Below the pieces are notes generated by a model. That model was not told where the DNA came from, made no database searches, and saw only the letters and a program-made list of their open reading frames with translations. DNA of 64,000 nucleotides from Octopus vulgaris. Taxonomy: Eukaryota. The stretch is from positions 17,980,001 through 18,044,000 of the forward strand of contig OX597821.1 in NCBI GenBank assembly GCA_951406725.2, given 5' to 3'. Shown piece after piece: positions 55,742-63,975 of the stretch. The translations under genes were made by a program, and so were the position numbers. The stretch's first letter is position 1. The number at the start of each line of letters is the position of its first letter.

Positions 55742-56294
55742 ATGGAAATGTCAACCGCAAAGTTGTTAATATTTTCTTTGTCTTTTATTGCATGTTTCCC
55801 TGTTAATGAAACGGTAATATGTACCTATAATGTGTGCTCGTTTCATGACCCATGCAAGAATGGAGGAACCTGTAAACCAAATAGTGAATGCAAAGCAGCA
55901 TGCATCTGTCCGCCGGAGGTCGATGGAAAACATTGTCAACATAGAAAATCACCCAAACGTTGTACAAATGAATGCACGCCAGACACATGCCATAATCACG
56001 GCAACTGCACATTTGATACAGAAAGTTGCAATATGGAATGCAAGTGTGAGTCTGGCTATACAGGAAAAAAATGTAATCATGAAAGGTGCGACGCAATGGT
56101 TTGCGTTCATGGTTCTTGTAAGAAAATCAATAATGTGAGGTCTAAATGTCAATGTGATGATGGTTGGATTGGAGAGACGTGTAATATAGGTTGTACCCGC
56201 AACTGTTTACATGGAGAATGTTTCCTACACCGTGGAGAGGAAATATGTGCCTGTGAGGGCCATTATAAGCCAGATTCAAATTGCACCGAAGAAG
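55742..56294 (+). CDS. EGF-TM-TIR receptor, coding exon 1: signal peptide plus 4 EGF-like repeats
   Basis: MEMSTAKLLIFSLSFIACFP; PCKNGGTC..CICPPEVDGKHC; CHNHGNC..CKCESGYTGKKC; CVHGSC..CQCDDGWIGETC; CLHGEC..CACEGHYKPDSNC. Donor GAAG|GTCAGT, 553 nt, phase 1. Confidence 0.9.
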
Positions 56295-56551
56295 GTCAGT
56301 GAAAGTCTTTTAAAATATTATCATTACATCTTATTACAGTTTATATTGAATTGTACTTTATGATATGTATAGACGGGAGGAAGAAGTAATGCCTACGTGT
56401 TTCAATTGCCGTTTAATATCGGTCAGATTAACAGATTGCTGTTTTGTTTGTATAGTTGTGGTCAACGTCTGCAGGAAAGATTATGTGCATATACTACATA
56501 CACACACATGCACCCACACACGCACACGCACACTCACACGGATATGCATAC

Positions 56552-56785
56552 AGGCGGCGAGCTGACAGAAACGTTAGCGCGCCGGGCGAAATGCTTAGCG
56601 GTATTTCGTCTGTCGTTACGTTGTGAGTTCAAATTCCGCCGAGGTCGACTTTGCCTTTCATCCTTTCGGGGTCGATAAATTAAGTACCAGTTGCCCACTG
56701 GGGTCGATGTAATCGACTTAATCCTTTTGTCTGTCCTTGTTTGTCCCCTCTGTGTTTGTCCCCTTGTGGGTGGTAAAGAAATAGA
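56552..56785 (+). mobile_element. Intronic SINE (family of 4959)
   Basis: ggcggcgagctgacagaaacgttagcgcgccgggcg...gataaattaagtaccag. Confidence 0.82.
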
Positions 56786-58760
56786 TATGCATACAGATAC
56801 GCATATCTTTTCCTGTGTGTGAGTAGATGCAGTACGGCTGACAGATTAAGAATCTCGTTTGCAATCATGAGGCTCGTATTCAATAACACTGCAAGGCGTG
56901 TAATCTAAGGGACAAAAGCCCCGAGTCGGCACAAAGTTTTTATGTGAAATGGTGAGATGGATATATCAGGAAGCTGGTCGGATGAATTGTAGACGTAATT
57001 GTAAACGTCATACTGAGTCACGCTGAGTGTTATATGAAAATAGTTTCGAAATAGTTTTCTCCTTTCTGGTTTTGAGAAAGATTGGTACTTTAAGCAGATT
57101 GATACTTTAAGTAGTGTGTTACATATCCCAGAGCCCCAATATGTACGCATGTATGCATATATGTATGTATGTACGTATGTATGTATGTATGTATGTATGT
57201 ATGTATGTATGTATGTATGTATGTATGCATGTATGTATGTATGGATATATGTATATATATATATAGCGAGAGAGAGAGAGAGAGAGAGAGAGCGAGAGAG
57301 AGAGAACACATTTTAGAGTGGTTTGCGGGTATTTGACATCTACTTTCATTGTATCCCGCTTGTCATATCCAGTAGCCCTTAATTATAATTATATTTTATA
57401 ATTATGTTTAAAAAATTTTTTTAATCTTTACCTATACTGTCACTGTTATGCGCTAAGCCAATGATATAATCACTTTTTCATTATGTCCTTATTTTATTTT
57501 ATAGATATATGTGCGTGCGTGTGTTTGTGTCTGCGTGTGTGTGTGTGTGTGTGTGTGTGTGTGTGTGTGTGTGTGTGTGTGTGTGTGTGTGTGCTTGTGT
57601 GTACATATACGTATGTATAAATACATATATTATGTAGTGTAAACAGGGTTATATTCCAAGCTAACCTTTATGAAGAACATCTGCAAATTCCGGTGCTGCA
57701 AAATTGTATATTGATGTTATAATTATGTGAGGTATGCGTAAGTGTTGAAAAATACTGGAAAATAGCATGATAGAGTAATTACCTATCAAAACCTTTTAGT
57801 ATTGTTTATTCACCATTACACGTATTTCATTTGTTAAACGGAGCAACAAGTTGGTATATGTAGGAGAAACAGGCAAGGCATCTCCTATCAGATAGTGAAT
57901 CAAATAACAATGTATAATTTTATTCTCTCTCTGCTCGTGAAATTAACGTGCAAGTGATTGAGCACTCCACAAACATGTGTGCCTTTAACGTAGTTTTCAT
58001 GGAGACTCGACATGACATAGGATGTGACAAGGTTGTTTACAGATGCGACTCATTTTTGCCAGCTGAGTGTACTCGAACTCACGACCTTTGGCCGAGTACC
58101 CTAACCATCTTCCACGCGTTTGTTTGTGTTTAACGGCTTTATAAATAAAAAGATATTTTTAAGATACTCAAGCATTAGTGAAGGCAATCTCCCGAAGTCC
58201 GAGAAAAACACGGTTCTGAAATTTCTTGTAGAACAACCTGCCCAAATGATTTATTCTTACTGATCAAATGTTCGTGTTTCACATTAGCATCCTCTCTTTA
58301 TCAAACCGATGTTGCTGAACCGGTGTAATCTGTAGCATATGTTAGACGCCGAAGTGATCGTAGAGCAACATGGGATGAAGAGTTTTGCTCAAGAGAGCAC
58401 TGCGCACCACCCCACCCAGGAACTGAAATCACGATCTTGCGATCGTAAATGCAGCACTCCTAACCTCTAGGCATGTGCCATCTCAAGCATTTATGAAGTC
58501 TTCGGTTATATTATAAAAAGTACCATGCATGTCGATACCACTTGCAACGTGCTGTCTAAGAGCCACTATGCTATACGGAAATATAAGGCTAAATATCAAT
58601 TTTCCAGCCTCTCAACAATTGGACAGTCTTTGCTCCTCTTAATTTCTTAGCTTCAGACTTCCTCCGCGCAGACACTGACGACTCTTTCATCTAGATTTCA
58701 CTGTATAGTACTTACACAAATGTGTTGATTTCTAAAACCTTATTCTTGTAATCATTGCAG

Positions 58761-61250: not shown

Positions 61251-61789
61251 TACATCTGGATACATGTAGGTTCATTTTTGATAGCATGCTCATGTATTCT
61301 TTATATAAAAAAAAAAAAGGTGATAAATAAAAGGAAATTTCACGTATAATACATAACTTAGAAGCTGCGCTACGGATGTGCCAGCACATACGAGCTTGGG
61401 AAAAGGCCGCCCACGCGCATTTCTCGTGAAGAATTCCGGAAGGAACTTCGTGAGACCGCTGCAGAGACGCTTCCAGAAAAAAAACCGTTGGAAGACCGAT
61501 TATAGCAATTTTTATATTCAGATATATAATACTCTTGATGATTGAATTATAAGTTATTATAGTTCATTGTTGTTAATATAATGCATTGTTGTGCCATTCA
61601 AAACGTTATTCTTTACAAACAATATACAATGCTTCAAGCGAACTACAATACTCTCCTATATATATACGTGTGTGTGTGTGTTTGTGTGTGGTGTGTGTGC
61701 GTGTGCGTGTGTGCGTGTGTGTGTGTGTGAATACGTATACACATACATACATATATATATATATATATATATATATATATACATAAATG

Positions 61790-62285
61790 TATTATTGCCA
61801 TTAAGAAAACCCCTCCGAAGAAAATCTGCAATCATTCTGGTCAAAAATTTGGTACAAAAAGTGGGATTTCAACCTGAATGCATCATGATTAATTAAAATT
61901 GAGAGAGAATAGTGTACCAACACTAACAGTAAGACATACAAGATTGATGTAGAAACCTTCGCTATATCAGTAGGCAAACTGCAGAGTGGGAAGGCACCTG
62001 GAAGGGACCTAATATTTGGATATTGGTACAAGACGCTGACATTTTATAGAAACCAGTTGATACGTATGTTCAAAAGGATTATGGAAGGTCAGACTGATAT
62101 GCTAAGTTGGCTTGATACAGCAGGGACAAATCTTGTTGCCAAAAATGAAATCACCGAGATAGCATGAAACGACAGGCCCATTGCTTGCCTAAACATTATG
62201 TACAAACTGTACACAATTTGCCTCAACCAATTCCTCCATTGTGAGTCGAACAAAGTTGAGACTGATGAACAGGCTAGTGGAAAGA
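61790..62285 (+). mobile_element. R4-like RT fragment
   Basis: KAPGRDLIFGYWYK, RPIACLNIMYKLYT. Confidence 0.65.
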
Positions 62286-63831
62286 CTAAAAGTTTAAGAT
62301 AGATAACGAATATTGGTAAAATTAGAACTACGTTTGGTTAAAGGAGACTAGTAATAGGGTGTATACTTGGGTTGTATTAACCGTTACTCCCGAAGTTAAT
62401 TTGAGTGTGTTTTAACTCAAGATTGTTTCAGTCTTTAGTTCTTCTTTTTACACCTTTTATCACTCTTCATTAGCTAATGATTAGCACTCCAGTTTCGGTA
62501 CCTACCATCCTCAACGAGTCCCAATTCAATAAATACTCATATTTTATCATAGGATTTCTTGAGGGAGTTCGCGGAGCAAAACTGGAGTCTCTCGTAATAT
62601 GATTGGCAACTGAACACTGATTATCTAGCACATTCTTTTTCTTTGACTACTTTAATGCTTCATCATTTTTAGACCAAGTTATGTTTCGTATGTATTTATT
62701 AGTATTTAATTATAGGTGCTTTCTCACTTTGCCTACTAAGGGAGTCACCAATTACTCCTCACACAAATAACGCAAAAATGGGCTTGGTTGATAAAGTGTT
62801 AATTATCGTCTTGTATATTACTGTTTACAATTCATACATTTGTAATTTGTATTCTGGGATCAAATATGTCCGTATATTTCCAAATAGCATTACACCATAT
62901 CTTCAATATTGTTTGCCATCATCGGAAGCAGTGATCTGCTTTAAGGTGTCGATATCACAGTGATATCCGATTGGCAACTAACGAGGGAAGTTCCCAAATA
63001 TGCTAAATATTCTGATCCGTCTCTCTCCATCGTCTACTTTTGTTGTTATTTTTTATTCTTTTTAGTTACATAGTGCATCATAGTTTTTTTTTTTTTTTGT
63101 AATGTTCATCAAAGACGGAATGTCGTTATACTGCGCCTGTATGTGCGTGTGTGTGTGGGGGGGGGTTGTGCCGAAAAGTTTCTGACTTTAAGGGTGTCGC
63201 AAAAAGCCTGGTCGAGGGTCCAATCTTCCGAGTTCTTTTACTGAGCTTAGATAAACTGAAGGACCGCTGCAATAAGTTTGTAAATCTGAGAGGGAAATAT
63301 GTTGAATAAAATCATAATTAAACTGATTTTCCTAAAGCCAGGAACTTTTCAGACATCCTCGTTGGTGTGTGTGTGTGTGTGTGTGTGTGCGTGCGTGTGT
63401 GTATGTGTGTGTGTTTGTGTGTGTGTATGTGTGTGTGTGTGTGTGTGTGTGTGTGCGTGCGTGTGTGTATGTGTGTGTGTTTGTGTGTGTGTATGTGTGT
63501 GTGTGTGTGTGTGTGTGCGCGGGGGGTGCGTGTGTGTGTTGGCATAGACAAAACATATATGTTCATAAGTAAACATGAACTGGATATAAACATGCTTGTA
63601 TATTCCCAAACCACGTCAGATAATAATTCTAATGTTGTTTGACATCGTGGGAATTTGGGACACTGCCTTAAAGTGATGAAATCCCGTTTATATCATTTCT
63701 TTAAACATGTTTTTGTTCTCTCTCCGTTCGTTGTCACTGTTTTCTTTGATTTGTATTACTGACATTGGGTAGTGTCGATTCTTATTTTTATTGCTCGTTG
63801 GTAGATTATACTATACATGTATATATTTCAG

Positions 63832-63975
63832 ATGGTAAAGAGTATGACGCTTTCATCTCGTTCCGTTCTGCAACATCGGATGAATATTGGGTATTTAACA
63901 CACTGTTTCCCACCCTAGAGAATGAAATGGGTTTTAAATTGTGTGTCCATTTCAGAGACTTTCTTGTCGGTGAAA
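63832..63975 (+). CDS. EGF-TM-TIR receptor, first TIR-domain exon (boxes 1-2); the gene continues beyond the right edge
   Basis: tttcag| (D)GKEYDAFISFRSATSDEYWVFNTLFPTLENEMGFKLCVHFRDFLVGE |gtaagt; 144 nt, phase 1-1. YDAFIS and KLC.H.RDF..G are TIR box 1 and box 2. Confidence 0.9.

Follow-up and report, generated by a model that had tools for sequence, protein, structure and literature searches.

The TLR and IL-1R families, whose TIR domains resemble the one described here, both signal via MyD88 (PMC7075850). In molluscs, a category named EGF-TIR appears in an oyster survey (PMC4346834, Fig. 1 legend), and a survey of Aplysia lists two EGF-TIR genes of stated unknown function, which it files as intracellular TLR adaptors after the oyster survey (PMC9334734). 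Here we describe an Octopus vulgaris gene whose first three coding exons lie within a stretch of 64,000 nucleotides (the window; G000:C8:17980001-18044000) and which encodes a 410-residue protein with EGF modules, a predicted transmembrane (TM) helix and a TIR domain. Judged from its sequence, the gene is a new member of the EGF-TIR class already named in print, being molluscan and sharing the same pair of domains, a likeness drawn from the published descriptions.

An EGF-TIR receptor is not described in the available portions of PMC6321704, PMC5549309, PMC10279657, PMC8662601, PMC7144542 and PMC3705552. In the literature searched, which leaves subscription journals mostly uncovered, we found no ligand or functional study of EGF-TIR proteins, and the receptor topology may already be in print. 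Gerdol et al. 2017 (PMID 28109746), the principal account of TIR proteins in bivalves, may already describe EGF-TIRs as receptors.

A spliced four-exon gene

The EGF-TM-TIR gene is real and spliced. As a sequence-only reading of the window had proposed, its first three coding exons are bounded by GT donors and, on exons 2 and 3, AG acceptors, are separated by phase-1 introns and join in frame to encode 288 residues. The evidence for splicing consists of assembled contigs from four runs of four studies, which carry no tissue label and whose RNA nature is a guess. Hereby, the junction of exons 1 and 2 (56294/58761) is bridged across GT..AG in all four runs and exons 2 and 3 are contiguous (58928/63832) in all four, while the junction of exons 3 and 4 is present in three; the X8 contig starts 13 nt within the intron. 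All four exons stand together in each of two single records, X3 (2556 nt) and X11 (2500 nt); X3 (depth 7.5) has one additional A within a run of A residues that follows box 3, possibly an error. Because the GT-AG introns are removed exactly and exon 1 occurs at a single genomic locus, we take the contigs as spliced transcripts.

Exon 4, located by querying 264 kb around the window with TLR TIRs that this genome encodes without introns, completes the TIR domain, and the contigs continue past it as a 3' untranslated region to L011:7881. The sequence-only reading had named two outcomes that would speak against it, namely EGF and TM/TIR exons in different genes and the lack of further TIR exons to the right of the window; what was found is one gene with its TIR completed there. 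Separate genes are ruled out by the contigs that join all four exons, and a processed copy as the source of the joins is ruled out by the single locus of exon 1. Immediately 5' of exon 1 lies an AG acceptor (55693-55694). Two contigs carry 55 and 234 unplaced nt 5' of position 55694, where a repeat was skipped, and no upstream non-coding exon is demonstrated by them.

The four-exon product is identical over 410/410 residues to P0011, a public protein whose source assigns it to Octopus vulgaris, and the gene is as a single entry already annotated in public protein sets. Identity to the O. sinensis model amounts to 406/410 and to the O. bimaculoides model to 345/410.

Pfam places EGF families on exon 1 (EGF_2, 25.9 bits) and recognises exon 3 as TIR with 22.6 bits, both above cut-off, and all three TIR boxes are present in the complete domain. 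The proposed order of signal peptide, four EGF repeats, predicted TM helix and TIR is borne out, the signal peptide by hydropathy and a predicted helix. Likewise, the BB loop reads RDFLVG as claimed, and the additional cysteine pairs claimed for the first two EGF repeats are found as C27/C50 in EGF1 and C74/C96 in EGF2. The full-length model, computed with a 35-row alignment (mean predicted local distance difference test score, pLDDT, 78.6), comprises an N-terminal helix, a beta-rich cysteine region, helices 194-221 and 223-234 and the TIR domain. A single-pass cell-surface topology is likely.

The ectodomain model (pLDDT 90.5) finds its best fold matches in the EGF arrays of Notch, Delta and Jagged; SCARF1 is among the weaker matches (rank 31) and integrins rank low. 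Notch, Delta/Jagged and SCARF1 likewise carry EGF folds in tandem on a chain that crosses the membrane once, but they lack the TIR domain; Draper and Eater are EGF-array surface proteins of the same kind. The eight-cysteine pattern of the two distal modules resembles that of integrin-type EGF, and EGF1 carries a C-x4-T-C motif, an O-fucose consensus. Between O. vulgaris and O. bimaculoides, exon 3 is identical in 48/48 residues and the ectodomain in 143/185, i.e. 77% identity compared to 100% and 86% for the TIR. All feature coordinates are collected in the table.

Table. Positions of the gene's features and of the neighbouring paralogue's first exon (numbered within the window unless a genome coordinate is given)
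Feature	Position	Strand	Remarks
Coding exon 1	55742..56294	+	start codon, signal peptide, four EGF modules
Predicted signal peptide (~residues 1-18)	55742..55795	+	hydropathy peak and modelled helix 3-17
EGF1, 8 Cys (C27-C65)	55820..55936	+	contains C-x4-T-C motif
EGF2, 8 Cys (C74-C111)	55961..56074	+	
EGF3, 6 Cys (C116-C147)	56087..56182	+	one of the membrane-proximal pair conserved family-wide
EGF4, 6 Cys (C151-C181)	56192..56284	+	
Coding exon 2 (56 codons)	58761..58928	+	stalk, TM helix, juxtamembrane helix, acidic motif
Transmembrane helix	58802-58867	+	predicted, within exon 2
Coding exon 3 (48 codons)	63832..63975	+	TIR betaA, long AA loop, alphaA, betaB, BB loop
BB loop RDFLVG	63954-63971	+	within exon 3
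Intron 3 start (GT donor)	63976..64000	+	extends 16.3 kb beyond the window's right end to coding exon 4
Coding exon 4	G000:C8:18060295-18060662 (= L011:6295-6662)		AG acceptor; TIR alphaB to alphaE, box 3, tail, stop
Paralogue, first coding exon	53..524	-	Asn-rich stretch and reduced EGF region after a signal peptide; model based on splice sites

Elsewhere in the window, a short intronic repeat at 56580-56740, probably a SINE-like element, is covered by contigs to a very high depth in each of the four runs. Long open reading frames at 12167-13560, 17946-23024, 25163-31338 and 45412-50132 resemble, as judged by eye, LINE/Penelope reverse transcriptases, GIY-YIG endonucleases and a mariner transposase.

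Family, isoforms and paralogues

A search with the full protein returned 80 matches at E<=1e-10, the named top matches coming from Octopus, Argonauta, Acanthosepion, many bivalves and gastropods, Owenia and Lingula. The earlier suggestion of a mollusc receptor class noted in genome surveys holds insofar as EGF-TIR is named in the oyster and Aplysia surveys; its restriction to molluscs does not, as Owenia and Lingula have such proteins too. In the atlas, the only match is an unnamed molluscan cluster (0.94). Among 35 aligned members, hand-picked for full architecture, TIR is found in 35/35 and EGF_TEN in 24/35, whereas LRR and Ig domains are found in none (0/35 each). A TM-like peak lies between EGF and TIR in 35/35 of these members, selected as they were for full architecture, in contrast to the filing as intracellular adaptors in the Aplysia survey. 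The conserved core of the family comprises the membrane-proximal EGF pair, the TM helix, the juxtamembrane segment and the TIR; the ectodomains otherwise range from 1 to ~13 EGF-like motifs with no conserved non-Cys/Gly surface, and at least one eight-cysteine EGF module occurs in 21/62 family rows.

Database isoforms skip the TM exon in frame (O. bimaculoides, an O. sinensis paralogue, Mytilus) or skip exon 3 (two octopuses), the Mytilus skip junction before the TIR being at the same place as the octopus intron. Some annotated isoforms end in other last exons, present downstream in the genome studied here, and the octopus models with alternative ends give TIR-less or half-TIR membrane forms. 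Small exons at G000:C8:18077367 and 18085376 (L013, L014), downstream of exon 4, are alternative ends in public octopus models.

This genome holds three full EGF-TIR genes. One paralogue stands head-to-head with the gene described here, ~55 kb from its start, with its TM and TIR exons left of the window (C8:17961024-17939498); the other, at G000:C8:24454679-24472945 (+), has a long duplicated Asn-rich ectodomain. Both follow the same four-exon plan and carry Pro-type BB loops (RDFVPG). Head-to-head with the second paralogue, at C8 ~24434840-24435350 (-), lies a partly decayed first exon that has lost several cysteines; within the region examined, no downstream exons of this copy at 24.435 Mb were found. 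An Ig-TIR protein query against the genome returned only TLR-type loci and the three EGF-TIR genes, a result to be read as a lower bound.

Other loci of the genome were noted in passing. Tandem TLR-like clusters lie at G000:C3:22.89-23.16 Mb and C1:102.0-102.1 Mb, the BB-loop Pro being absent in the loci read, and the C1 copies have their TIR interrupted after betaC by a stop or an intron. A search for death domains returned 29 loci, and many alike death-domain exons at G000:C29:27.9-29.4 Mb and on C31 form an apparent local expansion.

Origin of the TM-TIR module and the BB loop

By their sequences, the EGF-TIRs stand at about an even chance of sharing the lineage of their TM-TIR module with Ig-TIR (IL-1R-like) receptors rather than with LRR TLRs. 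For the comparison we used 62 EGF-TIR, 14 Ig-TIR and 44 confirmed LRR receptor rows (47 were first labelled LRR; P0142, P0171 and P0187, unconfirmed, were removed). Counted from box 1 through alphaA, the TIR has at least 24 residues in 60/62 EGF-TIRs and 14/14 Ig-TIRs, compared to 21-22 in 44/44 LRR receptors, and an acidic juxtamembrane motif before box 1 occurs in 53/62 EGF, 6/14 Ig and 0/44 LRR rows. In its strict form, the AB-loop motif occurs in 28/62 EGF rows, 4/14 Ig rows and 4/47 of the rows first labelled LRR. Human IL-1RAcPb can be aligned with exon 3 free of gaps, unlike TLR1/2, which require them, and IL-1RAcPb is the top match of the TIR fold search.

Profile scores point the same way. 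The EGF-TIR profile scores 94.8 bits on AcPb, 93.8 on SIGIRR, 79.9-81.2 on IL-1RAPL2, 77.6 on IL-1RAPL1 and 70.6 on IL-18RAP, compared to 63.8, 51.6, 45.3, 54.8 and 44.0 bits, respectively, for an octopus TLR profile; relative to the latter, it is thus 23-42 bits higher on five IL-1R-family TIRs with structures and 16-29 bits lower on TLR1/2. The TLR control was built from the TIR only, a full-length LRR profile being swamped by LRR matches. Of the group-4 (IL-1R) motifs, the octopus TIR has E-x3-G-F-x-L, the terminal M-P and two basic residues, and is without the Pro, the alphaE K/Y pair and the long betaE. The last exon spans alphaB to alphaE, which matches the IL-1RAcP exon boundary at the level of secondary structure; in IL-1RAcP, the exon 12/12b swap exchanges this alphaB-alphaE part (PMC9213720). 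Below the EGF-TIRs, the wide search gave Ig-TM-TIR proteins, and those looked up come from hemichordates and one crinoid. Several hemichordate Ig-TIRs combine EGF-like, Ig and HYR modules. The TIR intron may agree with that of IL-1RAcP also to the codon and in phase. As a separate observation, the TM-TIR proteins P0147, P0150, P0167, P0180, P0190 and P0196 have ectodomains built of cadherin-like, EGF-like, Ig and HYR modules; the three of these proteins that were looked up come from hemichordates.

All TIR trees are quick ones. In the unrooted tree that groups EGF with Ig rows, 7 long rows were omitted; in the rooted tree, 6 long rows were omitted and 33/62 EGF rows used. Of the other TIR trees, one omits 11 short TIRs, and one omits 33 unlabelled rows and is thinned from 191 to 123 rows at 80% identity. 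The EGF-bearing TIRs of molluscs, annelid and brachiopod fall on one side of a branch with a Shimodaira-Hasegawa-like approximate likelihood ratio test (SH-aLRT) support of 96, or 79 with outgroups, a grouping that arises partly by construction because the rows were collected by likeness to the query. EGF and Ig rows group with a support of 95 in the unrooted tree and 93 with a bacterial-type TIR outgroup.

Compared to the IL-1R family (IL-1RAcP/AcPb) and the ambulacrarian Ig-TM-TIRs, the octopus protein is alike in its predicted single-pass TM-TIR plan, the long AA loop, the E-x3-G-aromatic-x-L AB loop, the terminal M-P contact, the last exon from alphaB on and the decoy-type splice forms in annotation; it differs in the absence of Ig domains and in betaB and betaE motifs of TLR type. 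Compared to TLRs (TLR1/2/6/10-like; the octopus LRR-TLRs on C1, C3, C5 and C29), it shares the highest whole-TIR similarity, the group-3 motifs and, with five C3 TLRs, the BB loop, but differs in lacking LRRs, in an AA loop two residues longer, in its intron-split TIR and in its separate side of the tree.

The alternative, which concerns the origin only and which we place just short of an even chance, is that the TIR derives from an LRR Toll-like receptor whose ectodomain was swapped, the IL-1R-like traits being ancestral or convergent. Several results count for this alternative or otherwise against a shared lineage with Ig-TIRs. By sequence, the complete TIR matches TLR1/2/6/10 as well as IL-1R-family TIRs, and the whole-TIR ranking puts TLR1/2 first (116 bits vs 95). 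The TIR carries the TLR-group motifs C-x-H-x-R-D-F-x-x-G and Y-L-x-W-P (group-3 Y-I/L-x-W-P). The profile control is uneven, with 35 EGF-TIR vs 8 TLR sequences, and the Ig-TIR profile is itself less shifted towards IL-1Rs than the EGF-TIR profile (TLR1 143, AcPb 82 bits). None of the trees includes vertebrate IL-1R rows. In the approximately unbiased (AU) test on the rooted tree, two alternative groupings are left unrejected (p-AU 0.835 and 0.812) and have higher likelihoods than EGF plus Ig. Moreover, invertebrate Ig-TIRs are regarded as convergent with vertebrate IL-1Rs (PMC7075850; PMC5094078). A swapped LRR receptor is, however, at odds with the AA-loop length and juxtamembrane motif, which set EGF and Ig rows apart from 44/44 LRR rows, with the shift of the EGF-TIR profile towards IL-1Rs, and with the gene structure, the TLR-type TIRs of this genome lying mostly in long single open frames while that of the EGF-TIR is split by an intron.

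The BB loop had been read earlier as a hint at altered adaptor use, since it lacks the usual Pro, a suggestion that the comparison does not support. At this position, the 18 intronless TIR loci of the genome, 15 of which have an LRR motif in the stretch read, carry Val in 13, Ala in 2, Tyr in 2 and Pro in 1; five of them, the C3 TLRs, have the identical RDFLVG. The published TLR-group pattern, H-x-R-D-F-x-x-G, does not fix the Pro (PMC7075850), whereas in TLR4 the P712H exchange abolishes signalling (PMC9213720). Val is also the commonest residue in the 44 confirmed LRR receptors (18, with Pro in 10), compared to Pro in 40 and Val in 7 of the 62 EGF-TIRs. As Pro is thus the majority residue of the EGF-TIR family, the cephalopod orthologues did change it. 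With Val so widespread in TLR-type TIRs, we rejected it as a specific sign of an altered adaptor, and it is weak evidence for a different one.

Proposed function and significance

We tentatively propose, at somewhat less than an even chance, that the 410-residue protein is a ligand-clustered cell-surface receptor acting through MyD88 on NF-kB in a putative immune role. Hereby, the receptor would be clustered by an extracellular ligand, which is likelier to be a protein of the host than a pattern of microbes, and the clustered TIR domains would recruit or nucleate MyD88, which via IRAK and TRAF6 would switch on NF-kB; exon-skipping isoforms could provide decoy forms, as in the IL-1R family. The MyD88 route is proposed because the TIR resembles those of the TLR and IL-1R families, both of which use it, and transcripts of MyD88, IRAK and TRAF6 are present in O. 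vulgaris haemocytes (PMC4199593). Several points tell against this proposal: IL-1RAcPb, the closest fold match, is without NF-kB signalling (PMC9213720), the lack of a conserved non-Cys/Gly ectodomain surface, together with 1 to ~13 EGF-like motifs, fits poorly with a fixed cytokine ligand, and the skip isoforms are database models, none of which appears in the four contig runs.

Rather unlikely, in our estimate, yet a serious rival is a direct sensor whose EGF array binds microbes or dying cells while the TIR signals via MyD88, modelled on EGF-array receptors of the Draper/Eater/SCARF type. An ectodomain that evolves faster than the TIR, a widely varying repeat number, several members per genome (three full genes here) and the SCARF1 fold match agree with such a sensor. 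Against it, the best ectodomain matches, to Notch and Delta, reflect the generic EGF fold, and the EGF-TIR family is small here compared to the TLRs.

An equally serious rival, to which we give the same low but real probability, is a receptor with a regulatory or non-immune task, comparable to SIGIRR, IL-1RAcPb or IL-1RAPL. Instead of activating NF-kB, it would damp the signalling of other TIR proteins or have its place in cell contact, in neurons or in development. Within the IL-1R family it is indeed the non-activating members whose TIRs come closest (PMC3705552), though these are also the ones with structures; furthermore, the TIR is halved or missing in annotated isoforms, and the BB-loop Pro kept by most family members is lost in the cephalopod orthologues. 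Yet Val at this site is common in the genome's TLR-type TIRs, every TIR box is intact, and the two octopuses do not differ in exon 3.

More doubtful still is the notion that EGF-TM-TIRs form a lophotrochozoan branch of the IL-1R lineage, in which EGF repeats replace the Ig domains, and serve as receptors for IL-1-fold cytokines, the Val-type gene and its Pro-type neighbour acting as receptor and co-receptor. IL-1-fold proteins are predicted in bivalves in a preprint whose main text contains neither the word cephalopod nor Octopus (bioRxiv 10.1101/2025.07.17.662885). A Pfam IL1 search of the genome gave no match but is uninformative, as its control matched nowhere either. Finally, an enzyme-type TIR that would cleave NAD+ once clustered, in the manner of SARM1 or the TIRs of plants, is highly improbable: the alphaC glutamate E321 is invariant in 35/35 aligned members but does not discriminate, because the same Glu is present in 44/47 rows first labelled LRR and 14/14 Ig rows, TLR and IL-1R TIRs are far better matches than those of SARM1 and plants, and no vertebrate TLR TIR is known to act as an NADase.

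The EGF-TM-TIR proteins, which molluscs have in common with an annelid and a brachiopod, constitute a possible third class of TIR receptor at the membrane. The possible link to the IL-1R lineage may be the part most worth following. If the TM-TIR module is of that lineage, it would bear on the question of homology versus convergence of invertebrate Ig-TIRs and vertebrate IL-1Rs, and the EGF-TM-TIR proteins would be candidate receptors for the invertebrate IL-1-fold cytokines (bioRxiv 10.1101/2025.07.17.662885).

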